Below, piece after piece: positions 289 through 13,899 of a DNA stretch of 64,000 bases. This stretch comes from an uncultured Gammaproteobacteria bacterium (lineage in GTDB: Bacteria; Patescibacteriota; Patescibacteriia; UBA9934; GWF2-40-263). How positions within the stretch are numbered: the first letter of the stretch is position 1; each line of letters starts with the position of its first letter. The position numbers and the translations under genes are program-made. The stretch lies in contig CAZIDX010000001.1 in assembly GCA_964538435.1 (NCBI GenBank), positions 203,304 through 267,303 of the forward strand, given 5' to 3'. The notes beneath the pieces are model-generated. The model ran no database searches. It was not told the origin of the DNA and saw only the letters and a list, made by a program, of their open reading frames with translations.

Positions 289-1359
289 TTACTTAGGACC
301 TTGTGCAGAATATACCCTTGTCGCAAACCATGTTGCAATCGGGACCAACAGAACAAGCGTGCTCGTACCTGCAATGGTACGTATAATTTCCTCAGCAATA
401 ATCTCTTCGTTCAACAATCGTATAATTCCGATATCATCTCGAAGTGCAAAAAGGAGAAAAATAGGGAGAGCTACACCTGAATAAGCCAAGACAAGAGTAT
501 TCACTACAGAAGCAATATGATGTCTTCCAACAGACATAGCCTTTTTGTAAAGCTCCCTAGATGTAAGCTTTGGATTTGTCTCGTGAAGCTCGAAAACAGT
601 TTCTGTTTGTGTAATAGCAATATCATCCAACACACCAACCGCACCCAAGATGATTCCAGCCAACAACAATCCCGATGGAAGCTCAATGGCATCAGTGGTC
701 AAAAACAATAAAGAAGCTTCCTCCGAACCCAACCCAGAGAGTCGAGAAAAATACACAAAGAAAGCTGAAAAAAACCATGCAAAGCACAAACCGATGATCG
801 TACTGAAATACGCGTAAACAGTTCTTTTGTTGAAACCATGTGTCAATGGAAGGTTTATAAGCAAAATCATAGCTGATCCGATGACTGTGATAAGCACAGG
901 ATCAACACCATTAAGAATCTGAGGAACGATAACACCAAACAAGATCGCACAGGTAACAGCAAGACCGACAAGCGATGTAAGACCTCTCTTTCTGCCAACC
1001 AAAACAACAAGCACTGCAAAAAACAAAACGATCCAAAGAAGCGAAGGCGTCCTTACAACATCGACAAGAAACACTTGCACCGTATCATCAGGATAGACAA
1101 TAACTTGCAACAAAACCTCTTGCCCCACCTCCAAATCATACCGCGCATCACCAAGCAGCGATTCACTACCGTCCACTACATAGCTCACACCCTCATCATC
1201 AACCGCAGTAAAAGTTGCATGCGCACCGTCATCAATCTCTTCCACAAAATCAATCGAGCTCACACTCGCACGAACCTCCTGACTAGACTGAGCATGCACA
1301 AAACCACCTGACGCAAAAAACAAACTTATAACAAAGACTGCAAAAAGATATTTTTTCAT
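289..1359 (-). CDS. YibE/F-family polytopic membrane protein (signal peptide plus multiple TM helices)
   Basis: ORF 289..1539, trimmed to the internal Met (MKKYLFAVFVISLFFASGG...), ATG at 1357-1359. The hydrophobic multi-TM C-terminal half resembles YibE/F. Confidence 0.55.
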   Translation of the reverse strand: MKKYLFAVFVISLFFASGGFVHAQSSQEVRASVSSIDFVEEIDDGAHATFTAVDDEGVSYVVDGSESLLGDARYDLEVGQEVLLQVIVYPDDTVQVFLVDVVRTPSLLWIVLFFAVLVVLVGRKRGLTSLVGLAVTCAILFGVIVPQILNGVDPVLITVIGSAMILLINLPLTHGFNKRTVYAYFSTIIGLCFAWFFSAFFVYFSRLSGLGSEEASLLFLTTDAIELPSGLLLAGIILGAVGVLDDIAITQTETVFELHETNPKLTSRELYKKAMSVGRHHIASVVNTLVLAYSGVALPIFLLFALRDDIGIIRLLNEEIIAEEIIRTIAGTSTLVLLVPIATWFATRVYSAQGPK

Positions 1360-1430
1360 ACAAGAGAAATTATAACAGATCAGACACCACTCACTTAAAC
1401 AAAAACACCTGTAATCAGATGTCTTCTGCT

Positions 1431-1458
1431 GGCTCCGAATACTGAACGGGTTCAGAAC
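1431..1458. repeat. REP-like hairpin repeat GGCTCCGAATACTGAACGGGTTCAGAAC (copy a)
   Basis: Near-identical copies at 1561-1588 and, degenerate, at 7772-7799. Contains an internal palindrome CTGAACGGGTTCAG. Confidence 0.6.
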
Positions 1459-1503
1459 GGTTGATTGTAACACATCCGCATATAGACCTGACCCCATAGC
1501 CCC
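1459..1503. repeat. Solo copy of the IS right-end inverted repeat (…CATATAGACCTGACCCCATAGC)
   Basis: Matches 11703-11748, the right end of the Y1-transposase element, with a 2-nt deletion. No transposase is adjacent. Confidence 0.6.
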
Positions 1504-1533
1504 ATACACAAACTCTCGCCCAACCAAACAAAA

Positions 1534-1566
1534 AACCACAGCAAGCTGTGATTTTTTGTTGGCTCC
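1534..1566. terminator. Bidirectional hairpin terminator (CCACAGCAAGCTGTGG flanked by A and T runs), duplicated at 11891-11916
   Basis: The stem CACAGC/GCTGTG with TTTTTTG on both strands is seen directly. The same 31 bp follows the tRNA-Asn 3' end at 11891-11921. Confidence 0.55.
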
Positions 1567-1663
1567 GAATAGTAAACGAGTTCAGAACCGTGGATTGGAA
1601 GAAATTTCACTCAATAGTAACTCAATTTACAAACGCAAATTTCTGCCACTGCTGATATTCTAA

Positions 1664-2980
1664 CTAACTTTCGAGGACTGACCAGTATGGCTGATCATAA
1701 TTTTCACCATTTATATCCTTCAAGATATCAATGTGTTCTTGTGACAATCCATTCACGAGATCGTTTAAATAACTGATAAATTTATCACGATCATTTAAAG
1801 TAAAAAATCGTGTGTCATATTCACCAATACGAAATTGTTTTCGAGTGCCTTTTGGCAACTCTTTCAAAACTCTAGCCGATTGCTTGTCAACGAACATAGC
1901 GTCACAATATGGCAAGTAACTAGAAATAAATTGCATATCTGCAGTAGATTTTGGTGCCTTCTTTTCTCCCAAACGAGCTGATCGAGCCAATCCCGCAAAC
2001 ATTACTGAGTTAATTTTAAGATAAGGCACATCTAACAGAGAATCGGCGTCATTGAGGTACTTATGAATGATATCCAAAACTTTTGTTTGATCGACACCTT
2101 TTTCAATTGCACTTTGTATAAGTTTACTGAGCAAAGAAAAAGCGGGTGGTGGCAAGATATCGTTTATTTCAAATTGAAAGGTTGGATCAGAAACTGCCCT
2201 CAATGTTGCGTTTTCTCTTCTTTGAACAAAGGCCCTTGTTGAAGTCAATACACCTTTTCCGAAACCGAGAACCTCTTCTCTAACCCTATCCTCGAAAGAC
2301 ATTTCTTCAGACTGCCACCGCTTCCAGATATTTGCCAACTGTTGTTCTGTGGAAGTATTTACTTTTTTCAGGTTATCAATCTCCTCAGCTTGTTGTGAAA
2401 AACCCACCGAAATCCTCATGCCGATCTCCCAAGTATGTAAATCTCTAAATGAAATATTTTGAGGGTCAAGTTCAAATATTGCATGTTTCCCATCTAGCCA
2501 GCAAGCAAAGTGCTGTCGCACTTGTTGTTCTTCAATGACGTGCGCTGGAAACAATGTTTTCCCACCAGAAAAATGTTCGTATAACTTTTTTGCCACCTGA
2601 AAATCAATGCCACCAAAGCTTGACTCATCCTTATGAAAAAAGCTGTCTGGACAAACGATCACTTGTGATTTAGAAGCCCTCTCTAAAGCAACAAATAGAT
2701 CGTGCCAAAATGGGTCTCTTTTTATTCGCTCATGACTTGGGTGCGTAGAATCAAGTAGCTTTATCAGATTACTGATTACAAATTGATCTAAATAAATAAC
2801 CTGCTTAAACAGATCTGGCAGGCTGATACGATTCTGATAATGACATTTCACACATTCTCTTGTGTAATAATTGTCACCTGAAATAATAATCAAAACACCA
2901 AAAGATGTTTTGCTCTTGCATGAAGGACAATCTTTATAGGGTTCAGTTATTAAATCATTTCTTGATAACTCTTGAGCCAT
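1664..2980 (-). CDS. Hypothetical protein with N-terminal CxxC…CxxC zinc ribbon, last gene of the RM operon
   Basis: ORF 1664..3106. Start moved to MAQELSRNDL… (ATG at 2978-2980), 7 nt after the upstream gene stop. Motif CPSCKSKTS…ECVKCH. No recognisable catalytic domain. Confidence 0.45.
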   Translation of the reverse strand: MAQELSRNDLITEPYKDCPSCKSKTSFGVLIIISGDNYYTRECVKCHYQNRISLPDLFKQVIYLDQFVISNLIKLLDSTHPSHERIKRDPFWHDLFVALERASKSQVIVCPDSFFHKDESSFGGIDFQVAKKLYEHFSGGKTLFPAHVIEEQQVRQHFACWLDGKHAIFELDPQNISFRDLHTWEIGMRISVGFSQQAEEIDNLKKVNTSTEQQLANIWKRWQSEEMSFEDRVREEVLGFGKGVLTSTRAFVQRRENATLRAVSDPTFQFEINDILPPPAFSLLSKLIQSAIEKGVDQTKVLDIIHKYLNDADSLLDVPYLKINSVMFAGLARSARLGEKKAPKSTADMQFISSYLPYCDAMFVDKQSARVLKELPKGTRKQFRIGEYDTRFFTLNDRDKFISYLNDLVNGLSQEHIDILKDINGENYDQPYWSVLES

Positions 2981-2987
2981 AGGCCAC

Positions 2988-4475
2988 TCATACCAAGCTA
3001 AGCAGTCTTCTATATATTTCAACCATTGCCAACGTGTCCAGCTTACAGTATTCGAGTAGGTCTTTGGCGATCTGGTTTTTTTCTTTTTGAGAAGTCTCTG
3101 GATCAATCATCTTTTCCCATCGCTCAACTGCTTGGTCACCCTTCTGCACATTCAATGCTTTGTAAGTCAGCTCTGGCACAAGGACTGGTAACACCTTCTT
3201 GATACTCGCACTCCCCATAAACTTTGCATCAACATACATGTTTTTTGAGAAGATATGCATGAGATCAAACATGCGGTCATTCATGCCCTCAAGGAAGTCA
3301 GTGTGTTCTGGATGCAGCTCTGCGAGCTTATTGTTTCGCTGCGATTCGTACGACTTATACCAAGAGATAACAGAACCCTTGTCATCAAAATCTTTTCTCA
3401 TCTGCTCAATGAGCGGCAGGGTCAAATCTTTTGTTGGCTCAGTAATCAAAAACTCTTTATGCTCCATTGTTCCGTCTTCATGCAACACATGTAGCGAATA
3501 CTGGAACGGCACTTGTTCATAAGCACCAAAGCCGCTGAACCGAGGAATTGCAGACGAATAACCCTCATAATCAAAGAAGTGAATTGGAAACACAAGCTCG
3601 TCTAACGCTTCCTTAATAGCCTCATGGTCAATGAGAGGCTTACCAGCCATATAGGCGTTGTATTGGGCTAATTTCGCCCCTGTGAGCTTCTCAGGGTTAT
3701 CTATATCCTCAAATGCGTAGATACCACGATCAATCCAGTCATAAAACAACTTCTTGCTCCCACCAATACGATTGATGTCATGAACCGAATACTCAGGAAC
3801 GTCAGGATTCGAGTAAACAAACGTCGTACATTGCGCATTGCGGCCACGATACAAACACTGACATCCTTTCTCTTCTGGATCGTGTAAATAGGCTTTCAAA
3901 TCACTCATTTGAGCTTGTACCTCTTCCTCGGCACCAAGCACTTCATCGGTTAAATCAGCAATGATAAACAAGTCGTCATAATTAACCTTCGTAAGCATTC
4001 GATACTCACTATTAAGATGAATGACGCCCGACTTAACTATCTTCACACCACAGCCTTCAATAACAGTCTTCTGAAACGCAAGATCATTTACATGATGATG
4101 AGGCACAACACGCTTAACATCATTGGTCGCCTTAACCTCATACAACTCCCAACCACCTAACACTTCGTTAAAGCGCAAAACGTCAGCCTGAACAAAAAAC
4201 TCATCATGCAAAAATGCACCCTGAAAAATGGTGTGTGTTTTTGTTTCAAGAAGACTCTCTGTAAACGGCACTGCATTAGGACCAACAATCTCAACCAAGA
4301 CACCATCAGGAAACAGACCTCTTGCAGCTTCATCCGCAAGGTTTCCTTCTTCAATAATCTTCTTCTCAAACTCAGAAAGTTCTACCCCATCAAAAAGCTC
4401 TGGCTTATGCTTCTTCAGCCAAAGATTCTTCCTGCAATAGGTGTATTCAAGATAGTCAGTCTTTGTGATGTGCAT
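2988..4475 (-). CDS. DUF2779-like nuclease (Cas4/RecB-like PD-(D/E)xK N-terminal region plus exonuclease-like C-terminal region)
   Basis: N-terminus MHITKTDYLEYTYCRKNLWLKKHKPELF fits the characteristic DUF2779 start (…SKS.F..G.QC.K.LWL…H.PEL). Cys cluster CQCLYRGRNAQC. ATG at 4473-4475, 1 nt from the RM stop. Alternative start at 4502. Confidence 0.55.
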   Translation of the reverse strand: MHITKTDYLEYTYCRKNLWLKKHKPELFDGVELSEFEKKIIEEGNLADEAARGLFPDGVLVEIVGPNAVPFTESLLETKTHTIFQGAFLHDEFFVQADVLRFNEVLGGWELYEVKATNDVKRVVPHHHVNDLAFQKTVIEGCGVKIVKSGVIHLNSEYRMLTKVNYDDLFIIADLTDEVLGAEEEVQAQMSDLKAYLHDPEEKGCQCLYRGRNAQCTTFVYSNPDVPEYSVHDINRIGGSKKLFYDWIDRGIYAFEDIDNPEKLTGAKLAQYNAYMAGKPLIDHEAIKEALDELVFPIHFFDYEGYSSAIPRFSGFGAYEQVPFQYSLHVLHEDGTMEHKEFLITEPTKDLTLPLIEQMRKDFDDKGSVISWYKSYESQRNNKLAELHPEHTDFLEGMNDRMFDLMHIFSKNMYVDAKFMGSASIKKVLPVLVPELTYKALNVQKGDQAVERWEKMIDPETSQKEKNQIAKDLLEYCKLDTLAMVEIYRRLLSLV

Positions 4476-4476
4476 A

Positions 4477-7400
4477 TCATTCAGGTTTCCAAACATCATC
4501 AATCTCTCTCATGATACGCTCAGTATTTGTCAAAGCGACGATGATTTTTTGCCAGTGGAGAATGTCGTCAAAAGTCAACCTGCACCCGCATCGATTTTTC
4601 AACCATCTCTGTGCAGGCTTGTATCCACCTATGTGAAAGTCCCAAGTATTTTCAGGAACTTTATCAAAATACTGCGTTTTGTTGATGTACACCTTTCCTG
4701 CATCAAATTTAGGATAACTTTTCTCAATTGTATTCGATCCAGAAAACGGAAACTCTGTTTTGGGCTTATCGGAAGCTTTATGATTCAAAAGGTGATAGTT
4801 ACGCAATTCTCCACCTAGTTTGATCAATTCTACAAACCGCTCGGCTGTGTCAGGATACGGGATGCAAGGAAAGTTTGTGCTCAAAAATTTTACATATTTT
4901 TTTCGGTATGAAGGTGAATACAAAATCGCGTATACATAATCAAATACATCAAGCGGTGAAAAAACATCACCTTCTGTATCATTGATTGTGGTAGCATCAA
5001 AACTGAATCTCAACCCGGTTGACCGTTCTATTTTACTCACGATATCTTGATCTAAATTCGGATTTCGGTATTGATTTTCATTAGTCCCAAATGACGTTTG
5101 ATTTGATTTATCATCATATGTATACAGTGGAAAAATCGCCGACTGTGTCGTGCGTTCAGCAAACTTCGCCTCAGTTATCAGACTGCTAACAAAAAAATGA
5201 TCTGGCCTGCCACTCTTATTACTTCGCGCGCTTGCAAGAGCCAAGTTGTTACCTGTCAGCATGTTTCGCATTACACTCCCTCTGTCTCTTTCAATAAAAT
5301 CTGGACTGTAATAGATGTGTCGGTTATCGAACGGTCTATACGAAATCTGTTTAATATTTTCTGAGTCGTATGAATGCTGTTGCGCTTGCGCTATCTTCCA
5401 GCTCTTATTTTCACGGAGATTATATTTATTCTTAGCTATTATGGGATCAAGTGTTAGAAATTCCTCTATTCTTACTTGTAATTGTTCTTTATCAAAATCA
5501 ATAACGAATGCATCTCTTGATGTCACAATCCCAACCGAATTTATTGGAAACAGAATGTTTAGATAAAAACCTTCCTCATACTTTTCCATTGCTTGAAAAT
5601 CACATCTAACGAATGGGTAATTAGGCGCTTGATTATTTAAAGTAACCCAGTTGATGGATCTAATATCATTATTCATGAGATCGTTATACTTCTCGTTTCG
5701 TTTTCCATAAAAGTCAGCATGAAGTATCTCTGCCAGCTCACTTGTTTTTCTACCATTTTTTATTGCCAAAATGATTGAAACCCCTTGCTTAATATCGAAG
5801 ACATTCTCATCTTTTCCTCCATCTGGTGCAGTCTCATTTCTTTGAGAATTACCATGTAGGTCAACTATATATATTTTGTCGAAGGTCGTAAGTAGATGCC
5901 AACGCATACCTCGAAAAGTTGGGTTATCCAGGTAACCATGATTTGTAACAAATCCAAGAACCCCCTCTCCGCTCTGTTCGATCATGTATTCTGAAAATCG
6001 CATGAACTTCACATAGTCATCATTGATCCATTTTGGATTTCGTTCACGTAATTTTTCTATTCCACCAGGCTCCTTCTTATATGCTTCCATCAGACCCATG
6101 ATGAAGTCACCCTTATTTTTTGACTCACCACTATAAGGAGGATTACCAAGTATGACCACTACTGGAGTCTCTTTTTTAACCTTATTCGCGGCATTTGCTT
6201 CGTTACTAAGCCAGGAAGAAAATAATGTATTTGTATCAGGATGTGCCTCTTCCAAACTATTAGTCAAATAGACACCAAGACGTTCGTTGGTATTTTTCTT
6301 TTGTCTATAACCAAATTCAGTAAGCAATAAATCAAGCTTTAAATGACACATGGCATAAGGTGCCATCAGAAGTTCAAAACCGTGGATTCGAGGTAATAAA
6401 TGTTCATTCACATAACTGTCCCAAATACCTTCCTGCCCTTCGAAGTTTGAGTGTATCTTACGAACAATTTCTGCCAAAAAAGTTCCTGTTCCAGTGGCTG
6501 GATCTAGAATTTGTACTCGATGCACTTCTTTTTCGATCCTTCGTTTTCCATCCTTGTATCGACCATCTGCCATCTGTGCATCAACCTCAACAGTAGTCAT
6601 GCTTGTATCAGCCAGACCTTTTTCCAGATTGAATTCATCTTTTAGAATATCGTCAATCGCCCGAACAATGAATTGAACAACCGGCTCCGGCGTATACCAT
6701 ACCCCACGAGATTTGCGCAGTTCAGGGTTAAACTCAGAAAGAAAAGTCTCATAGAAATGAATGAAAGGATCTAATCGCTTACTCTCAGAATGGAAGCTCT
6801 CCAAAATCTTTTTCACATCCGCAGCCCGGAATACATCTGCAAGCGCATCCACAATCCAAACGATACGATCATCTAGATCAGGACCAGCGACAGTGTTAAA
6901 CAACTTGCGTAAAAAAGGATTTGTTTTTGGTAAGAGTTCAGCTGCTTCTTGTCGACTAAAAGTATCAAGTGTTGGATCATGCAAGCGAGCTGCAAAGAGG
7001 CCGTATGCAATTGTCTGAGCGTACATGTCAGCAAACTCATCTTCTTTCATGTCATGAATCAGCACATTTCGAAAAGCTTGAAGCTCGCTTCGCAGATTAG
7101 ACTCTTCTTCTTCTGAATTTAGTGCTTTTGTGATCACATCTTTCATCAACCTTGCTTTTCCAGCCATGGCTTTTACCAGCCTGGATGCGGATTTGATCGT
7201 CTGACCATTATATGAAATGAAATCAGTTAACAAGTGCTGGAAGCGCTCAACTTCCTTATGATCAAAGATGATTTTATTCTTCTCTTTTGTACCAACGCAC
7301 ACTTGATCAACTTTTTCTCCATTAACAAAAAAACGAAAGTCTAAATAATCTGTTAAAACTAGATTATCTAAACTTTCAAGATATCTTTTTATTTGATCAC

Positions 7401-7653
7401 TGTTCTCGACATCATCAAGAGCAGTGCCAACATCCTTAGCCTCAATATAGCCAATCGGAACCTCTTTTTTTGTAAGAATGAAGTCTGGTGCCCCACACTC
7501 CTGACGCTTAGGTTCATTAACTGCAGAAATATTCTTGTCTAAATTTTCAATGAGGCTCTTTAGCATTGGACGGTAGCTATGTTCCGTTGCTTGGCCTGTA
7601 TCAAACTCTCTTTGGACAGACAAAAAATACTCTGCAAAAGTATCTTCATTCAT
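4477..7653 (-). CDS. Type IIG restriction-modification enzyme (MmeI/YeeA-like: PD-ExK nuclease, gamma-class N6-adenine methyltransferase, target-recognition domain)
   Basis: 1058 aa. N-terminal APDFIL…GYIEAKDVG (PD…EAK nuclease motif). SAM motif I VQILDPATGTGTFL. Catalytic motif IV ILGNPPYSG. C-terminal region …ILYSPSYRKKY…YKPAQRWLKNR typical of MmeI/Type ISP target-recognition and coupler domains. Confidence 0.75.
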   Translation of the reverse strand: MNEDTFAEYFLSVQREFDTGQATEHSYRPMLKSLIENLDKNISAVNEPKRQECGAPDFILTKKEVPIGYIEAKDVGTALDDVENSDQIKRYLESLDNLVLTDYLDFRFFVNGEKVDQVCVGTKEKNKIIFDHKEVERFQHLLTDFISYNGQTIKSASRLVKAMAGKARLMKDVITKALNSEEEESNLRSELQAFRNVLIHDMKEDEFADMYAQTIAYGLFAARLHDPTLDTFSRQEAAELLPKTNPFLRKLFNTVAGPDLDDRIVWIVDALADVFRAADVKKILESFHSESKRLDPFIHFYETFLSEFNPELRKSRGVWYTPEPVVQFIVRAIDDILKDEFNLEKGLADTSMTTVEVDAQMADGRYKDGKRRIEKEVHRVQILDPATGTGTFLAEIVRKIHSNFEGQEGIWDSYVNEHLLPRIHGFELLMAPYAMCHLKLDLLLTEFGYRQKKNTNERLGVYLTNSLEEAHPDTNTLFSSWLSNEANAANKVKKETPVVVILGNPPYSGESKNKGDFIMGLMEAYKKEPGGIEKLRERNPKWINDDYVKFMRFSEYMIEQSGEGVLGFVTNHGYLDNPTFRGMRWHLLTTFDKIYIVDLHGNSQRNETAPDGGKDENVFDIKQGVSIILAIKNGRKTSELAEILHADFYGKRNEKYNDLMNNDIRSINWVTLNNQAPNYPFVRCDFQAMEKYEEGFYLNILFPINSVGIVTSRDAFVIDFDKEQLQVRIEEFLTLDPIIAKNKYNLRENKSWKIAQAQQHSYDSENIKQISYRPFDNRHIYYSPDFIERDRGSVMRNMLTGNNLALASARSNKSGRPDHFFVSSLITEAKFAERTTQSAIFPLYTYDDKSNQTSFGTNENQYRNPNLDQDIVSKIERSTGLRFSFDATTINDTEGDVFSPLDVFDYVYAILYSPSYRKKYVKFLSTNFPCIPYPDTAERFVELIKLGGELRNYHLLNHKASDKPKTEFPFSGSNTIEKSYPKFDAGKVYINKTQYFDKVPENTWDFHIGGYKPAQRWLKNRCGCRLTFDDILHWQKIIVALTNTERIMREIDDVWKPE

Positions 7654-7736
7654 ATTGTGCTTTGGTAGGATTTTATTTGCAAAAAGGGGTCAGGTCGGAC
7701 TACGGACTTTTTCTATCTCAATTTTATCACAAAAAG

Positions 7737-7766
7737 AAAAACGAACGCTATTGATGACGTTCGTTC
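7737..7766. terminator. Palindromic hairpin AACGAACGctattgatgaCGTTCGTT between the two island modules
   Basis: An 8-bp perfect stem is seen directly, downstream of the 7800..8567 gene on the minus strand. Confidence 0.35.
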
Positions 7767-7799
7767 CTCTTGGCTCCGAATTGTGGAGGATGTTAGAAC

Positions 7800-8567
7800 T
7801 CAAATTTCAAAGAACATCTCAATCTCCTCTCTTACAACAGCTTGAATTCTTTCAACAAAAGGTAAGACATACTCGGCCCTCGACTTGTCGTCAGGAACAT
7901 CATTTTCATCAACGTGATAACACGAAGGAGAGGTGGCTACTATTATTATATCTGGCCTCTTTGGTAATGAAGTAAATAGATGGTTTAAAAAAGTCTTTAT
8001 TTCAACATCACTCACAATAGAATCACCTTCGTCCGAAGGATAAAAATAATCAATATCAATATCAAGAAAAAGAATAGACTTGCTAGAAATACCCATCACA
8101 CTTTTACAAAACGACTCTTGATCAACAAAATTTTCAAACTTAAAATTCAATTTACAATCTTTGTTGAAAACCCCACGCACCTGACTCTGACGACACAACG
8201 TAAATATTTTTGCGCCCTCCCCACACTCATAAAGAAAAGGATAAATGAAATTTTCGAATTGCAACCACTCGTTTTCAAAATGATCTATTTCAGATAATTC
8301 CTTAGGCAAATAGTGAAGCATGTCTTTATCAATAACAGCATCAGGATGCGCATCAATGTGCAGAAGGATTATTCTGTTACCACACGACTTTGTCATCAGA
8401 AATCTTTTCCAAACACCATAAGCCAACCTATGATTGTTCATGATGAAATAAGCATTCTTTTCGTCCTTCAATAAAAACCTTCCACCTAAAGCGCTTGTAA
8501 AATCGTTATTTACACTTTCAAGATTTTGCTTATATCTCCAGCCATTATCCTCTTGGTCTAACTCCAT
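7800..8567 (-). CDS. Arginase/deacetylase-fold (ureohydrolase superfamily, UPF0489-like) metallohydrolase
   Basis: Motifs NNHRLAYG … ILLHIDAHPDAV … FLDIDIDYFYPSDEGD correspond to the GGDHS / DAHxD / SxDxDxxDP metal-ligand motifs of the arginase family. Confidence 0.5.
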   Translation of the reverse strand: MELDQEDNGWRYKQNLESVNNDFTSALGGRFLLKDEKNAYFIMNNHRLAYGVWKRFLMTKSCGNRIILLHIDAHPDAVIDKDMLHYLPKELSEIDHFENEWLQFENFIYPFLYECGEGAKIFTLCRQSQVRGVFNKDCKLNFKFENFVDQESFCKSVMGISSKSILFLDIDIDYFYPSDEGDSIVSDVEIKTFLNHLFTSLPKRPDIIIVATSPSCYHVDENDVPDDKSRAEYVLPFVERIQAVVREEIEMFFEI

Positions 8568-8633
8568 AAGTAATAATAGTAGATAAAACCGACCTCGTGG
8601 CCGGAGTATAATTTATCACAAACCTTCTCGATT

Positions 8634-9092
8634 TTATTGTTTTCCCGTGGTGATATTTTCAAAGACCTCCTTAAATTTGTTTCTTTTCCTTTTTTCCATA
8701 AACGACCAATCCATACTCTGCTCCAGAACTTCAATCATGTCAGAATTATCTAGCTCGTATATAACCTCTGACACACCATACTTTAAGGTCCTTCGGAATA
8801 AGTAAATCTTACCTTTGTATTCGAAATAATACGGTCTAACGATATTAAACTCATCTTCAAGCTTTTGTTTCAGAACAGAAAACTCACCGCTACCCCTATC
8901 AACAATTGGCTCTTCTGAAATTTTTGCACGTAATTCCTGTGCCGACAATCCAATATTTTTTGCATTAACAAACGCATCGAAATATCGTTCGTATAAATTT
9001 ATAAAGTACCCAACCACATCAATATCGACCACAAAAGGCTCGTTCGGACCAAATGTCTTCCATTCCAACTCATCTTGTATAACTCTTTTCAT
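8634..9092 (-). CDS. Hypothetical protein (152 aa), part of the four-gene module
   Basis: Intact ORF tightly packed with neighbours (15-nt and 66-nt gaps). No recognisable motif. Confidence 0.4.
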   Translation of the reverse strand: MKRVIQDELEWKTFGPNEPFVVDIDVVGYFINLYERYFDAFVNAKNIGLSAQELRAKISEEPIVDRGSGEFSVLKQKLEDEFNIVRPYYFEYKGKIYLFRRTLKYGVSEVIYELDNSDMIEVLEQSMDWSFMEKRKRNKFKEVFENITTGKQ

Positions 9093-9107
9093 ATTCTAGA
9101 TGCTTAT

Positions 9108-9662
9108 TTACAAAAGCCCCAATTCAGACAAGATACTAGCAGCAACACTATTCTGATTAGTGAGACTGACTTGCTCCGTTATCATCGCACCCGAACACAA
9201 CTCGACCGCTTTCATAAACTTCTTCTCAAAGTCTGCATCGGTAAACTTTTTCAAGAAAAACAAAGCCATCAACAAAACTGACCACATTGTGTAAGTATCA
9301 ACTCCTGTTGCAAACAACCCGAAACCATTTGCTTTCATCTGAAAGTTCATGTGATCCCGATCTGGATCAAAAGATATATCACCAACAAAATTCTTTTTTT
9401 CTGTTCGTGAAAATTCAAGTAAATTATTGATTGCATCTTCTGGAAAATATTCTGAACCCTGTTCCGAAAGCTCATTCAAAGCCATAGAAAGATATTGCAT
9501 CGTTGGATTTCCTTTAAGATTCGAAAACTGTCTCAAAGTAAATAATAGGAAAGCAAGAATTGCGCCTCTTTGATTTTCCTGAGCACTGTCACCAGACGTT
9601 TCAAAAAGAAAAGCTGCCTTATTTTCTTCCTTGCAGTGAATTTCAAAATGTATTGTTGTCAT
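9108..9662 (-). CDS. Hypothetical protein (184 aa), part of the four-gene module
   Basis: Intact ORF, 1-nt gap to the upstream gene. No recognisable motif. Confidence 0.4.
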   Translation of the reverse strand: MTTIHFEIHCKEENKAAFLFETSGDSAQENQRGAILAFLLFTLRQFSNLKGNPTMQYLSMALNELSEQGSEYFPEDAINNLLEFSRTEKKNFVGDISFDPDRDHMNFQMKANGFGLFATGVDTYTMWSVLLMALFFLKKFTDADFEKKFMKAVELCSGAMITEQVSLTNQNSVAASILSELGLL

Positions 9663-9663
9663 A

Positions 9664-10713
9664 TCACTTTTTCCAAGAAGTTTTACCTAAAACTATGTAA
9701 TAGAAAACTTTAGAGATTGCAAAAAATACCGCAACCGTTACCACAATAAACCAAGAACCTATTTCAGGATCATCAAGGTAAAGGGCCCATCCCAACAACA
9801 ATGTTAGCACAAGAGCAACGACATACAGCACCTTTAAGAATCTAAACCAAACCTTGCCTTGCAGTGGATTCTGAGAAACTGGATGTGCTGTGGTGGCATC
9901 GGCTTGTTCTGGAGATGCAACATTGTTCATGTACTCTTCAGGTTTACCAAAAAGACCCTCTGCTAATTCTGAGATGCGTTGGAGCAATTCAGATTCTTTT
10001 TTTGATGACTGTTCTAACAATCGAGTTGCTCTATCCACTCTCAACTTCATTTCTGTTGCGGAAATTTGTTTGGGCATTACCCCATCATTGTCTACAACAA
10101 TTGCTGGAATGATTCTTTCAATTGCAAGATTCTCTTCAAGGGCAGTTGCGGCATCCTTTCTTGCATCCTGTAGTTGATTAACCAAACCATTCCACTCGCT
10201 AAAGTTAGCACCTAAAACTTTAATGGAATCTTCTTGGCTATACTTATGCAATTTTTTGAAATCAATTTTCTTCAAAAATGACTCTATTCGCAACAACAGT
10301 GAAGCAACAACCTCCTGTTGTGTAAGCACACTTTCAAAAACCCGCTCCTCATAAACATCAATGATTTGCATTGCCGTTTTTGCAAGTTTCAAATTCTCCT
10401 CTTGGGTTTGAGTGTTATTAGGATCAGACAAAAGATCAGAAATTCTCTGCAAAGCCACAAAAGCATCATTCTCATCCTTGTGATCAAAATGAAAAGCAAG
10501 ATAGGACCCTTGTTTAATAGACGCTTTCTGAACCTCAGTTCCCAAAGCAATCAACAACTTCAAATTCCGATAATCAATTTTTGATTGTTCATATTCTTCG
10601 CGTGCTTTATCAATCTTTTTCTTGAAAAGGGTAAAAGGGTCAGGTCTATATATGATACTACTTTCTAGATATCTGTCCGATTGTTGAACAGTGAAGCCCG
10701 AGATGTTTCGCAA
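9664..10713 (-). CDS. Coiled-coil protein with C-terminal 2-TM region (possible membrane effector). N-terminus runs into IS-derived sequence, so the gene is likely 5'-truncated.
   Basis: C-terminus …VWFRFLKVLYVVALVLTLLLGWALYLDDPEIGSWFIVVTVAVFFAISKVFYYIVLG has two predicted TM helices. The first ~27 codons (10633-10713) lie in another frame inside the duplicated transposase 3' end and IR. Confidence 0.4.
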   Translation of the reverse strand: MRNISGFTVQQSDRYLESSIIYRPDPFTLFKKKIDKAREEYEQSKIDYRNLKLLIALGTEVQKASIKQGSYLAFHFDHKDENDAFVALQRISDLLSDPNNTQTQEENLKLAKTAMQIIDVYEERVFESVLTQQEVVASLLLRIESFLKKIDFKKLHKYSQEDSIKVLGANFSEWNGLVNQLQDARKDAATALEENLAIERIIPAIVVDNDGVMPKQISATEMKLRVDRATRLLEQSSKKESELLQRISELAEGLFGKPEEYMNNVASPEQADATTAHPVSQNPLQGKVWFRFLKVLYVVALVLTLLLGWALYLDDPEIGSWFIVVTVAVFFAISKVFYYIVLGKTSWKK

Positions 10714-11032
10714 TTTCAGTACTCAAATATCCACATCTAAACCTTGCAAACTTGATAGCATTATCTCGTTCTTGTTTTGATGAAACCCCTTCAAATATTT
10801 CATCAAGTGTGGGTCTGCCAACAATTCGTTGTAAAAGGGTCAGGTCTATATATGATGCTACTTTCTCGATATCTGTCCGATTGTTGAACAGTGAAGCCCG
10901 AGATGTTTCGCAATTTCAGTACTCAAATATCCACATCTAAACCTTGCAAACTTGATAGCATTATCTCGTTCTTGTTTTGATGAAACCCCTTCAAATATTT
11001 CATCAAGTGTGGGTCTGCCAACAATTCGTTGT
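10633..11032. repeat. 200-bp tandem duplication (10633-10832 and 10833-11032, 2 mismatches) covering the left IR and the 3' end of the transposase gene
   Basis: Direct comparison of the two 200-nt units. Confidence 0.85.
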
Positions 11033-11740
11033 TCTCTTGGATACTCTTTGAGCTGTTCAGAGCCGTTTGTATGATTCTCCCAAATCCAATGAACATACTG
11101 AGGAGACCCAAGTATAAATCCATTCGTGAGATCATTATATGGATTATCCGCAGCAATACCATCCATCACAAACTTTCTATACTGTTTCTGTGCTTCTTTT
11201 CTCTCATCTCCAAATAAACTTAGTATCCAATCTGTGTGCAACCACTCAGGACATTTACTCGTTCCTGCTGTGTGTTGGTAACTACTCCACTTCCATTTTT
11301 TGGGATGGTCGCAGAGAGAATCGCGAACCGGGTTCAAGACAATATATCGAGAAACAGCTAGAAGATAGGTGTCTTTTTCTATAACGAATGCCTTGTAGCG
11401 TCCTTGCATCAAATGTCCGACTGTTTTGTGTCGTGCGTTAAAAGATTGCGTGTAGTTTCCATTAATGTCACGCATAGCTTTTGAGAGATTTCCATCAGGG
11501 GTCTCGATAAGTAAGTGGTAATGGTTGTCCATCAAACAATATGCATGAACGATGAGATTGTGTAGTTCAACAGCATCCTGAATCATTTCAAGAAAAAGAA
11601 GACGATCCTTGTCTTCTTTGTAAATATTTTGATAGCCATTACCTCTAGACATCACATGATAGAGGGCTCCAGGATATTCAACTCTCAGTGGTCTTGCCAT
11701 ATGGTTGATTGTAACACATCCTCATATATAGACCTGACCC
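10837..11740 (-). mobile_element. IS200/IS605-like (Y1 HUH transposase) element bounded by 19-bp perfect inverted repeats GGGTCAGGTCTATATATGA, RAYT/REP-like organisation
   Basis: IR at 10837-10855 and its reverse complement at 11722-11740 flank the single transposase ORF. Extra solo or partial IR copies at 1459-1503, 10637-10655 and 7685-7698. Confidence 0.6.
10858..11700 (-). CDS. Y1 (HUH) tyrosine transposase, IS200-like TnpA fused to a DnaA-domain-IV-like C-terminal HTH
   Basis: LYHVMSRGN … CLMDNHYHLLIE (HuH motif) … RYIVLNPV. C-terminus LSTEIAKHLGLHCSTIGQISRK resembles the DnaA C-terminal DNA-binding helix. Confidence 0.8.
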   Translation of the reverse strand: MARPLRVEYPGALYHVMSRGNGYQNIYKEDKDRLLFLEMIQDAVELHNLIVHAYCLMDNHYHLLIETPDGNLSKAMRDINGNYTQSFNARHKTVGHLMQGRYKAFVIEKDTYLLAVSRYIVLNPVRDSLCDHPKKWKWSSYQHTAGTSKCPEWLHTDWILSLFGDERKEAQKQYRKFVMDGIAADNPYNDLTNGFILGSPQYVHWIWENHTNGSEQLKEYPREQRIVGRPTLDEIFEGVSSKQERDNAIKFARFRCGYLSTEIAKHLGLHCSTIGQISRK

Positions 11741-11756
11741 CATAGCACAACTTCAA

Positions 11757-11843
11757 AACCTCCTGACTCGACTGAGCATGTACAAAACCACCTGACGTAA
11801 AAAACAAACTTATAACAAAGACTGCAAAAAGATATTTTTTCAT
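11757..11843 (-). pseudogene. Duplicated 5' fragment of the yibE/F-like gene (promoter plus first ~29 codons) fused to the IS right end
   Basis: 11757-11893 is ~96% identical to 1273-1409. Translating from the ATG at 11841-11843 gives MKKYLFAVFVISLFFTSGGFVHAQSSQEV, then reads into IS sequence. Confidence 0.55.
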
Positions 11844-11916
11844 ACAAGGGAAATTATAACAGATCAGACACCACTCACTTCAAACAAAAAACCACAGCAA
11901 TGCTGTGATTTTTTGT

Positions 11917-11991
11917 TGGCTCGGGGGGTGGGGTTCGAACCCACGACCCACTGGTTAACAGCCAGTTGCTCTGCCACTGAGCTACCCCCGA
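11917..11991 (-). tRNA. tRNA-Asn (anticodon GTT), CCA encoded
   Basis: Reverse complement folds as TCGGGGG-TA-GCTCAGTGGCAGAGC-A-ACTGG-CTGTTAA-CCAGT-GGGTC-GTGGGTTCGAACCCCAC-CCCCCGA-G-CCA. Confidence 0.85.
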
Positions 11992-12471: not shown

Positions 12472-13326
12472 ATGCCCATCAAACTCGTTGTCACTGACTT
12501 CGACGGCACCATGACCGACGCTGAAGCCGAAGGCCTCCCCTTCATCGAGAGCTACACCGAGATGCTCCTGCACCTCACTGGCCTGGACACCGGGACCTTC
12601 TACGCACTCTTCGACGGCATGTCGCAGCAGATCCATGAGCACCCGCACAAGCACGGTGTGAAAAAGGGTGGAATCATGGTGGCACCTGCCATCGTGGACC
12701 CGTACCTGCGCATGCAGACGATTGCTGGCATGATCTTCGACCGCGAAGGGCTGTTCACAGACTCGCGCGACCGAGCCAACCTGCTCGAGATGATGTTCAG
12801 GGCCAGCTACGCCAAAACCGATGTCGTGCCTCGTCTAGGCGCTGTCGAGCTTCTCACCGCACTCACCCAGAGCAGCGACCTCGACACCTGCATCGTGACC
12901 AATGCACGGACCAAGAGCGTTCAGCACAAACTCGAAGTCATGGGCATGAACTCTGGCAGCATTCCGCTTTGCGCAAATGCCCAGAAATTCTTCATCGGAG
13001 ACGATCCCGCTCGCATCCCCGAGCGCATCCAACTGCTCGAAGAAACCGACGATCACCGCTGGATCTACCCGCGCCGCAGCAAGTACTACGAGCTGCTGAA
13101 CTTCCTTCGCAGACAGAACGAGCTGGACTGGTCCGAGATCTGCGTCATCGGCGACATCTTCGAACTCGACCTGGCCCTCCCCTTCCTCCTGGGCTGCGAG
13201 GTCATCCTGATCGTCAACGACATGACGCCAGGCTACGAAATCGACTGGCTCTCTCGCCTGACAGACGCGCGCGCACGAATCTTCGGCGACCTCAACGACG
13301 TCCGAGGTTACCTCCTCGGATACTAA
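12472..13326 (+). CDS. HAD-superfamily hydrolase (high-GC gene)
   Basis: Motif I VVTDFDGTMTD, RBS GGAG upstream. Start moved from 12262 to the ATG at 12472. Confidence 0.7.
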   Translation: MPIKLVVTDFDGTMTDAEAEGLPFIESYTEMLLHLTGLDTGTFYALFDGMSQQIHEHPHKHGVKKGGIMVAPAIVDPYLRMQTIAGMIFDREGLFTDSRDRANLLEMMFRASYAKTDVVPRLGAVELLTALTQSSDLDTCIVTNARTKSVQHKLEVMGMNSGSIPLCANAQKFFIGDDPARIPERIQLLEETDDHRWIYPRRSKYYELLNFLRRQNELDWSEICVIGDIFELDLALPFLLGCEVILIVNDMTPGYEIDWLSRLTDARARIFGDLNDVRGYLLGY

Positions 13327-13353
13327 CCCCGCCTTGCGGGGTTTTCTGATATA
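13327..13353 (+). terminator. GC hairpin CCCCGCcttgCGGGG plus TTTTCTGATATA (conserved high-GC-block terminator motif)
   Basis: Seen directly. The motif recurs at 14787-14800, 27361-27397, 43758-43770, 62241-62255 (minus strand) and 63427-63439 (minus strand). Confidence 0.6.
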
Positions 13354-13389
13354 CTCTAACTGATCCCGACTAACCCTTAACACAAACCT

Positions 13390-13899
13390 ATGTTAGTCAA
13401 CAACATCCCAACCATGAACATGGACATGTCCGAAACTGGATGCTGTCCAAAATTCCAGCCCCTTGCCTGGGACAACAAAGAAATCGTCCTCGATAACAAG
13501 CTTTTCCTCAAAGTCAAAACAAAAAGCTTCTTGCACATCCCCCTCAACATGAAAGGTGTGTTCATGAAAGCTTGTTCTGACATGCAAAAGCACGAAGCCT
13601 CTCCAACTGACAGTTACATGATCCTCTCGCACGATCCATCTCCTTGGCGAGCCGAGCATTTCTTTGCTGTCACAAAAGAAATCCCAGGATATGAGCATGT
13701 TCGCCTCTCAGGAAACTTCCTTGCCAAAGTTTTTGAAGGCCCATACAAGAACATGCGAAACTGGCACAAAGAACTCGAAGAGCATGTCGCTGGCCACAAC
13801 CGCAAACTCAAAAAAACCTACTTCTTCTACACCACCTGCCCAAAATGTGCTAAACACTGGGGCAAGAACTACGTTGTAGGATTCGCTGAAGTTGAATAG
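13390..13899 (+). CDS. Hypothetical protein (Cys-containing, 169 aa)
   Basis: Intact ORF. Start ambiguous (several Met near the N-terminus). No confident family assignment. Confidence 0.4.
   Translation: MLVNNIPTMNMDMSETGCCPKFQPLAWDNKEIVLDNKLFLKVKTKSFLHIPLNMKGVFMKACSDMQKHEASPTDSYMILSHDPSPWRAEHFFAVTKEIPGYEHVRLSGNFLAKVFEGPYKNMRNWHKELEEHVAGHNRKLKKTYFFYTTCPKCAKHWGKNYVVGFAEVE

Follow-up and report, generated by a model that had tools for sequence, protein, structure and literature searches.

A predicted two-nuclease DUF2779 protein that recurs behind restriction systems, in what is probably a mosaic defence island

RecBCD and AddAB degrade DNA after restriction in model bacteria, and PrrC and RloC are accessory genes embedded in Type I restriction loci. 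CRISPR is largely absent from bacteria of the candidate phyla radiation, which probably depend on restriction systems instead. The DUF2779 family has been classed with the 3'-5' exonucleases that carry a PD-(D/E)xK domain as a fusion (PMC3985635), and its Mycoplasma member in JCVI-syn3.0, MMSYN1_0389, combines a Cas4-like and a DEDD nuclease, has no assigned role and is quasi-essential (PMC13621843). Here we describe a DUF2779 gene in a 64,000-nt stretch of a contig from an uncultured bacterium assigned to the Patescibacteriota (CAZIDX010000001.1, positions 203,304 to 267,303; assembly GCA_964538435.1; hereafter the window). Open reading frame (ORF) listing and translation placed it second of three consecutive minus-strand genes, in the order gene 1, gene 2, gene 3, behind a gene for a restriction-modification (RM) enzyme and in front of one for a zinc-ribbon protein. 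The best explanation, to which we give a probability of roughly 0.55, is that a horizontally acquired island holds one transcription unit that is a patchwork of separable defence modules, of which the DUF2779 gene is a recurrent follower of restriction systems. The three genes and the hairpins that bracket them are as follows.

4477..7653, minus strand: gene 1, 1058 amino acids (aa), predicted single-chain Type IIG/IIL restriction-modification enzyme
2988..4475, minus strand: gene 2, 495 aa from the ATG at 4475, DUF2779 protein
1664..2980, minus strand: gene 3, 438 aa from the ATG at 2980, zinc-ribbon protein
7734..7771, minus strand: terminator-like hairpin, 15-pair stem and T run, ending the upstream unit (UPF0489-like gene)
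1531..1558, minus strand: terminator hairpin downstream of gene 3, almost the same as the one behind tRNA-Asn

Direct reading of the junctions gave GAA-TGA-T-ATG between genes 1 and 2, a stop-to-start gap of 1 nt, and GTA-TGA-GTGGCCT-ATG between genes 2 and 3, a gap of 7 nt. These gaps and the coordinates agree with an initial annotation of the same DNA, whose length for gene 1 was also correct; its 496 aa for gene 2 and 439 aa for gene 3 become 495 and 438 aa. The hairpin at 7771-7734 forms the 5' border of the three-gene unit, and the one at 1531-1558 is 97% identical over 37 nt to 11886-11922. Because terminators flank the trio and a search of the gene 1/2 and gene 2/3 junctions found none there, genes 1-3 probably form a single transcription unit. 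Gaps of 10 nt or less separate 22 of the 49 same-strand neighbour pairs in the window (45%), so the tight spacing is no evidence of coupling, and the translational coupling that the initial annotation took as a sign of a composite system loses its force.

The gene 2 product matched PF11074 (DUF2779) over residues 299-424 with an E-value of 5.9e-37 and 127.2 bits against a cut-off of 23.3; further matches were to RNase_H_2 in Pfam (1.9e-5) and to weak Cas4 models in PADLOC (4e-4). Its N-terminal half is of the Cas4/MGME1-type PD-(D/E)xK nuclease kind, with the triad D98, E113, and K115, and an exonuclease domain of the DEDDy type with an RNase H fold (D302, E304, D404, Y476, and D480) makes up its C-terminal half. 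Cys14, Cys205, Cys207, and Cys216 form a Cas4-type set of four cysteines, candidate ligands of an Fe-S cluster, and triad, cysteines and DEDDy set were all invariant in an alignment of 26 homologues. The AlphaFold2 (AF2) model had a predicted local distance difference test score (pLDDT) of 79, with values below 50 in segment 201-253, which holds Cys205, Cys207, and Cys216. Foldseek matched the model to MGME1 with probabilities of 0.99-1.0 and to Cas4 with 0.87-0.97 (4r5q and 7mi5, 0.94-0.97) at modest E-values (3e-3 to 5e-2 for MGME1/Cas4), and weakly to the ExoI and RNase H folds. The gene 2 product is predicted to be a two-headed nuclease, both active sites of which are apparently intact. 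The Pfam match, the triad and the Foldseek results bear out its first description as a DUF2779-like Cas4/RecB-type nuclease; supporting domain matches were found for the nuclease assignments of both gene 1 (see below) and gene 2.

Close relatives of gene 2 (64-88% identity) were gathered by peptide-pattern scans and de-duplicated by eye to about 41 loci, which makes the counts approximate, and their neighbours were annotated by clustering and Pfam. RM genes of Types I, II, IIG, III, and IV lay one to three genes upstream of the DUF2779 gene in 24 of the roughly 41 loci. They were on the same strand as DUF2779 in 20 of these 24, where 2-76 nt separate DUF2779 from its upstream neighbour, and never lay downstream of DUF2779 in the same operon. 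The arrangements, by locus label, were:

Type I same-strand operon before DUF2779: L069-73, L082, L083, L086-88, L103, L112
Type I HsdR a few genes upstream of DUF2779: L104, L105
Type I M/S genes on the strand opposite to DUF2779: L081/L129, L099/100
Type III before DUF2779: L075, L076, L077, L123
EcoRI R-M before DUF2779: L121
Methylases and an HNH nuclease before DUF2779: L084
Methylases only before DUF2779: L090, L093
SNF2-PLD helicase and Eco57I-type methylase before DUF2779: L092
GmrSD (Type IV) before DUF2779: L106, L115, L116
Type IIG before DUF2779: the window; L111 (divergent orientation)

Three further loci had helicases or helicase-nuclease proteins upstream: L097 and L119 a Schlafen-like helicase, L131 an SF1 helicase together with a DUF559-type nuclease. 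As a rough control, loci of gene 3 relatives were searched with the same RM reference proteins; an RM-like gene was within 5 kb in 11 of 65 and within 1 kb upstream in 6 of 65. RM linkage was more frequent for DUF2779 (24/41 vs. 11/65; Fisher p = 1.5e-5), as was a position directly upstream on the same strand (20/41 vs. 6/65; Fisher p = 6e-6). The papers found by full-text searches for DUF2779 or PF11074 did not describe a link to restriction, and the recurrent order of restriction system followed by DUF2779 is apparently undescribed.

The history of this association differs among pairs of loci. HsdR and DUF2779 diverged in step in pairs with EcoEI-type Type I systems (69% vs. 68% identity between L086 and L104; 79% vs. 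83% between L104 and L105), which suggests long linkage. The RM genes were closer than DUF2779 in other pairs (89% vs. 78% between L069 and L112; 88% vs. 77% in another) and far more distant in further ones (25-42% vs. 72-80%). Because RM identity is out of step with DUF2779 identity in such pairs, the comparisons show replacement of RM genes in front of a slowly evolving DUF2779 gene. Additional partial copies of the DUF2779 5' end were present within the same contigs in L105 (6277-6410 and 10755-10869) and L117 (355-390), and a DUF2779 copy behind the Type III system of L123 (3464-3898) was truncated after about 143 aa. These stray and truncated copies are hints of recombination or insertion at the gene's 5' end.

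Replacement of this kind could also arise if DUF2779 were a housekeeping repair or recombination nuclease whose upstream flank is a landing site for defence cassettes, perhaps exchanged by homologous recombination through the conserved DUF2779 gene. We rate this alternative as unlikely, and several observations that weigh against our own explanation are what it predicts or fits. Identities of 64-88% across many metagenome bins and differently named Patescibacteria groups fit a housekeeping repair nuclease, as does the quasi-essential Mycoplasma member (PMC13621843). One DUF2779 locus lies beside RecQ among housekeeping genes (LigA and DnaG), and L076 and L077 share DUF2779 and the genes downstream and differ in the restriction genes upstream. 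The RM cassettes that exceed DUF2779 in similarity and the extra 5' fragments in L105 and L117, which suggest recombination at the 5' end, point the same way. Also to be set against our explanation are the approximately one third of DUF2779 loci that have no recognizable RM gene upstream and the dependence of any cooperation on guilt by association; moreover, the adjacency of genes 2 and 3 in the window and, as a remnant, in one other locus (L001) leaves room for a lineage-specific partnership. Against a housekeeping role, the DUF2779 gene of the window is inside a low-GC (guanine plus cytosine) island between tRNA-Asn and a border element and not in the core genome, downstream flanks vary between loci too, and many unrelated upstream genes lie 2-30 nt from DUF2779, too close for it to have its own promoter. 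The plasmid location of distant family members and the matched HsdR/DUF2779 divergence of several EcoEI-type pairs, suggesting long-term linkage, also count against it.

The DUF2779 clade occurs mainly in Patescibacteria-named metagenome bins. Plasmids of Planktothrix, Aliarcobacter, and Salinibacter carry distant members, with helicase, ATPase, PLD, and PD-(D/E)xK genes around them and OLD-like and WYL-domain genes also among the neighbours. Such company would be expected if DUF2779 were a stand-alone anti-phage or anti-plasmid nuclease that is near RM genes through island clustering alone, as would its enrichment beside RM Types I-IV, SNF2-PLD, the Schlafen-like helicase and the SF1 helicase with DUF559-type nuclease, and the HEPN and PIN genes found downstream of it. 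We consider this quite improbable. In 20 of the 24 linked loci the RM genes lay upstream of DUF2779 on its own strand, and in none did they follow it in an operon; random clustering is disfavoured because it does not predict this polarity. Evolution of DUF2779 is unusually slow for a defence gene, and gene 2 matched no PADLOC defence model beyond weak Cas4.

The initial annotation proposed that the three proteins form an RM-plus-accessory composite system. When 68 loci encoding gene 3 relatives were searched by tblastn with genes 1 and 2, there was no adjacent gene 1 homologue and a single DUF2779 trace, a 54-aa remnant in L001. A neighbouring DUF2779 gene or gene 1 homologue accompanied gene 3 relatives in none of 64 genome loci and none of several metagenome loci, that remnant apart, and none of 57 DUF2779 loci had a gene 3 homologue. 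Recurrence behind RM genes was observed for gene 2 homologues, and gene 3, except in L001, showed no linkage to gene 1 homologues or DUF2779. One obligate composite of Type IIG enzyme, DUF2779 protein and zinc-ribbon protein is therefore very improbable. The single transcription unit with its 1-nt and 7-nt gaps, the nucleic-acid-acting appearance of all three proteins and the gene 2-gene 3 adjacency that L001 repeats as a remnant are in its favour; tight spacing, however, is the norm in the window, the DUF2779 gene of L001 is decayed beside an intact gene 3, and a gene 3 that is 70% identical (P0003) is solitary beside tRNA-Asn. The closest Type IIG homologues also have other neighbours, in a family that is mostly stand-alone. 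The unit is most likely a mosaic rather than a three-part system.

Gene 3 matched no family in Pfam, NCBIfam (above cut-off), PADLOC or PHROG and had only a weak zinc-ribbon match, consistent with its original description as a CxxC...CxxC protein without a recognizable domain. Its relatives number 382 homologues (clusters), and homologues were detected in 64 loci of species-representative genomes of Patescibacteria, Acidobacteriota, Verrucomicrobiota, Planctomycetota, and Rhizobiales. The family core consists of the CxxC...CxxC ribbon and YLDQ, PDSxxHxxE, YEH, and LPYCDAxFxD blocks (31 invariant columns among 26 members), and the invariant polar blocks suggest an enzyme. A SEC-C motif (PF02810) was present at the N-terminus of 10 of 26 aligned homologues and absent from the window copy. 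Structure prediction and a fold search, the check proposed with the initial annotation, gave a confident AF2 model (pLDDT 88.6) and, zinc ribbon excepted, no Foldseek match at E < 0.1 in PDB or BFVD; a profile search against PDB sequences detected nothing. The YLDQ block after a beta-strand and the conserved acidic residues had raised the idea of a PIN-like nuclease. The Foldseek and profile searches were negative for it, hhalign with the L083 PIN protein, which fills the corresponding slot, gave a probability of 0.6%, and the PIN reading was dropped.

The neighbourhoods of gene 3 relatives are diverse. The closest relative (72% identical, L001) is intact and has directly upstream the 54-aa C-terminal remnant of a decayed DUF2779 gene, and the solitary relative at 70% identity (L132/P0003) is between tRNA-Asn/GIY-YIG and a border element. 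Relatives at 58-60% identity are at one end of elements with an HTH_17 gene, RM cargo and, in L133, a serine recombinase. In L002 (6031-9953) and L133 (4806-7955), gene 3 homologues were divergent beside conserved unannotated genes (431-499 aa, 371-384 aa, small ORFs, and HTH_17); this gene set is followed by RM cargo, and by a large serine recombinase in L133, and resembles the backbone of an integrative element. A conserved neighbour for gene 3 was sought and no dedicated partner emerged, the largest clusters being the large serine recombinase (7/65 loci) and LexA (4/65). The slot between DUF2779 and the border element in L111, L083, L076, and L075 holds genes other than gene 3, namely two AbiU2-type HEPN genes, a Cthe_2314-type HEPN gene, a PIN gene, DUF7689, and an SDH-type protease. 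Because the same slot is elsewhere filled by other genes, gene 3 looks like one interchangeable island gene of a variable slot. A pair of Dam-type and N6_N4-type methyltransferases was observed beside gene 3 homologues in L007 (8017-10283) and L022 (2117-6114) and beside DUF2779 in L093 (5572-7946), 66-84% identical across loci, as in cassette shuffling between island types.

Gene 1 matched the PADLOC model REase_MTase_IIG over the whole protein with 1129 bits, and the Pfam matches were Type_ISP_C (4.5e-78, residues 701-1049), N6_Mtase, MmeI_Mtase, Eco57I, and a weak HSDR_N (54-115). The motifs APDF...IEAKD, DPATGTGTF, and GNPPYSG (NPPY) were legible in the translation, giving an N-terminal PD-(D/E)xK nuclease, a gamma-class N6-adenine methyltransferase and a Type_ISP_C target-recognition domain. 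Gene 1 is predicted to be a complete single-chain Type IIG/IIL enzyme with nuclease, methyltransferase and specificity domain in one polypeptide; the earlier reading of an MmeI-like enzyme with an N-terminal PD...EAK nuclease and an NPPY methyltransferase was correct. Against PDB sequences, LlaGI, LlaBIII, and 7lo5_A matched the methyltransferase-specificity part only. Compared with MmeI and 7lo5, a 1029-aa adenine methyltransferase that we take to be the Type IIL enzyme DrdV (7lo5_A, E = 1.4e-35), gene 1 has the same architecture at about 1050 aa with NPPY, and nothing essential differs; its specificity domain is of the Type_ISP_C kind. The methyltransferase and specificity domains are likewise homologous to those of the Type ISP enzymes LlaGI (E = 6e-39) and LlaBIII (E = 1e-31), but only residues 374-1022 of gene 1 aligned, starting at residue 895 of LlaBIII and 731 of LlaGI, and gene 1 lacks the helicase-like ATPase motor. 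NCBI names relatives of gene 1 "type ISP restriction/modification enzyme"; that class was rejected for gene 1 because it has no helicase domain, with no match to ResIII, Helicase_C or another helicase family in Pfam. The absence of the motor ATPase would make ATP-driven translocation and collision impossible. A BREX, DISARM or MADS methyltransferase was rejected as well: the best PADLOC model was Type IIG, mad2 reached 41.8 bits and the NCBIfam MAD2 model 30.5 bits against a cut-off of 720, and no partners (PglZ, BrxC; DrmA/B/C; MAD proteins) were detected among the neighbour genes by Pfam or PADLOC.

The gene 1 family is large and mostly stand-alone, as had been stated for Type IIG enzymes in general. 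The loci of its closest homologues, both followed by other defence genes, are L136 (3728-6377) and L137 (6910-9811). The closest homologue (64% identity) is followed with a 4-nt overlap by a gene for an OLD-type ATPase/TOPRIM nuclease, and the second-closest (60%) with a 3-nt gap by a SIR2 and DUF87 (HerA-like) pair, so that unrelated defence systems are packed there as tightly as the window genes. With OLD-like and SIR2-HerA genes behind its closest homologues, the suggested Type IIG-to-DUF2779 coupling is not a conserved pair.

The trio is part of an island at 1410-11756 (10.3 kb) with a GC content of 38.7%, compared with 48.0% in the rest of the window. Its borders and other features are:

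11917..11991, minus strand: tRNA-Asn (GTT), ARAGORN, Rfam tRNA 71.7 bits; proximal island border
1273..1409: direct repeat of 137 nt, left copy, covering the promoter and initial codons of a YibE/F-family membrane protein gene
11757..11893: right copy of the 137-nt repeat, 94% identical to the left, beside tRNA-Asn and cut off by the transposase flank
1429..1475, minus strand: border element copy 1, own hairpin follows (1401-1428); identity to L076 and L083 is 100% over 29 nt
1559..1605, minus strand: border element copy 2 (GTTCTGAACYCGTYYASTATTCGGAGCCA), about 30 nt, like the tRNA-Asn 3' end; distal island border with gene 3
7770..7799, minus strand: border element copy 3, a degenerate one (77% identical) directly upstream of the 7734-7771 terminator
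10858..11700, minus strand: Y1 transposase, IS200-like/RAYT-like, 280 aa, PF01797 Y1_Tnp 3e-12; inverted GGGTCAGGTCTATATATGA at about 10837 and 11740
1459..1503, minus strand: 45-nt transposase-flank copy, copying the 5' flank of the Y1 gene (11703-11747), with the core GGGTCAGGTC, which resembles repetitive extragenic palindromes (REP)
7682..7696, plus strand: REP-like core AAAAGGGGTCAGGTC, 15 nt, in the leader of gene 1
7800..10713, minus strand: four other island genes, 255-aa UPF0489/peptide-arginase-like and 152, 184, and about 349 aa

The 137-nt repeat suggests that the island brought host flank with it from an earlier, related host. A domain search of the island found the Y1 transposase only and no integrase or recombinase. 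A Logan contig from a separate assembly (SRR8146440_3004, L135) carries the same stretch from the ~349-aa gene to border element copy 1.

The border element (GTTCTGAACCCGTYCAGTATTCGGAGCCA), about 30 nt long, holds a near-palindrome and aligns with the tRNA-Asn 3' end. Further copies were present in L075 (11516-11547), L076 (6508-6548), L083 (10346-10378), L001 (11427-11469), L111 (5364-5399), and L132 (8970-9045), following the gene 3 homologues in L001 and L132 and lying downstream of DUF2779 in L075, L076, L083, and L111. The element is nearly always succeeded by a locus-specific terminator hairpin, as is each of the three window copies. The element is 97-100% identical between contigs of other samples, the DUF2779 genes of which are about 75% identical at the DNA level. 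It could be a relic of an attachment site (att), a recombination site or an RNA 3' end; a real tRNA or a known RNA was rejected, since ARAGORN and Rfam were blank there and no T-arm could be drawn by hand. A permissive Rfam scan gave a sub-threshold RNAI match at 1528-1643 on the minus strand (27.7 bits, E = 0.0022; gathering score 47) that spans copy 2 and the terminator and is probably due to chance. We treat the element as a putative tRNA-3'-end-like relic or recombination site.

The initial annotation suggested that the trio might be mobilized insertion sequence (IS) cargo between two IS-end copies. The copy at 1459-1503 is real; the second is AAAAGGGGTCAGGTC, at 7682-7696 and not at 7683-7698. 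The 10-nt core GGGTCAGGTC occurs five times against 0.05 expected. It is on the plus strand at 10837 and the minus strand at 11731 around the transposase and, oppositely, on the minus strand at 1485 and the plus strand at 7687 around the module. The copies are oriented wrongly for a left end-cargo-right end arrangement, and we rejected both an IS200/IS605-type unit and a unit of a REP-associated tyrosine transposase (RAYT). A tRNA-Asn-linked, low-GC island is better supported as an explanation of the context than IS cargo. A phage origin was also rejected: peptide patterns detected no DUF2779 relative in IMG/VR, gene 3 relatives occurred in just three viral contigs, the border element was absent from the viral contigs searched, and there was no PHROG match.

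The 255-aa UPF0489 protein had a weak match to peptide arginases (FlmR/OhkR) at its N-terminus, and the 152-, 184-, and ~349-aa proteins had no family in Pfam or PHROGs. A 200-nt tandem duplication (10631-11030, 99% identical) that is either real or an assembly artefact comprises the 3' end of the Y1 gene and REP-like flank and overlaps the predicted start of the ~349-aa ORF. Beyond a GIY-YIG gene and tRNA-Asn, GC rises to 56-59% at 12500-13500, with long overlapping ORFs on both strands.

The activities of genes 1-3 and any cooperation among them are predictions from sequence and structural models. Gene 1 would act alone, methylating its own site on host DNA and cutting unmethylated DNA. Gene 2 would be co-expressed with whichever restriction enzyme precedes it and load on the DNA ends made by restriction, from which its Cas4/MGME1-type nuclease and DEDDy 3'-5' exonuclease could degrade both strands; foreign DNA might thereby be finished off, or the ends processed for repair of self-inflicted breaks. 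Functional cooperation of this kind between DUF2779 and the upstream restriction system is plausible at somewhat less than even odds. Gene 3 most likely works on its own, as a nucleic-acid-binding zinc-ribbon enzyme or a mobile-island effector. More speculatively, and in our view doubtfully, the DUF2779 clade might be a generic "finisher," a last operon gene that all restriction types have recruited repeatedly for RecBCD/AddAB-like degradation or processing of ends, which would make it a new class of RM accessory protein. With the variable effector slot and the 30-nt border element it would then make up an unrecognized, cassette-like defence-island architecture, in which gene 3 would be an exchangeable effector with a fold not seen in solved structures.

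If restriction and DUF2779 do cooperate, this conserved two-headed nuclease could be put to the test as the enzyme that acts after restriction cleavage in these bacteria, whether to destroy foreign DNA, to repair self-cleavage or to recycle nucleotides. It would also offer the first functional handle on the widespread family to which the JCVI-syn3.0 protein belongs. The locus would be an ordinary defence island if DUF2779 were instead a housekeeping nuclease beside a landing site. Gene 3, with a well-populated family in several phyla, a confident model and no fold match, merits structural and phenotypic work.

Compared with known systems, the locus resembles tRNA-linked genomic islands in its adjacent tRNA-Asn, low GC, direct repeats, tRNA-3'-end-like relics and defence cargo. 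It differs in having no integrase and in its three relic copies and duplicated 137-nt host flank, which point to serial or imprecise events. Unlike CRISPR Cas4, gene 2 has no adjacent cas1/cas2 or array; no cas genes were detected among the neighbours by Pfam or PADLOC, and no repeat array in the window. Cas4, MGME1 and the AddB nuclease domain are, with the DUF2779 family itself, the nearest known counterparts of gene 2. The two-nuclease architecture is common to gene 2 and the Mycoplasma protein MMSYN1_0389, but gene 2 has all four Cas4-type cysteines, unlike MMSYN1_0389. With RecBCD/AddAB, PrrC, and RloC, gene 2 shares the concept of a second nuclease that acts with or after restriction, or of an extra gene in an RM operon. 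In contrast to RecBCD/AddAB, DUF2779 is without a helicase or ATPase, and in contrast to PrrC and RloC, to which it is not homologous, it accompanies every RM type rather than one.

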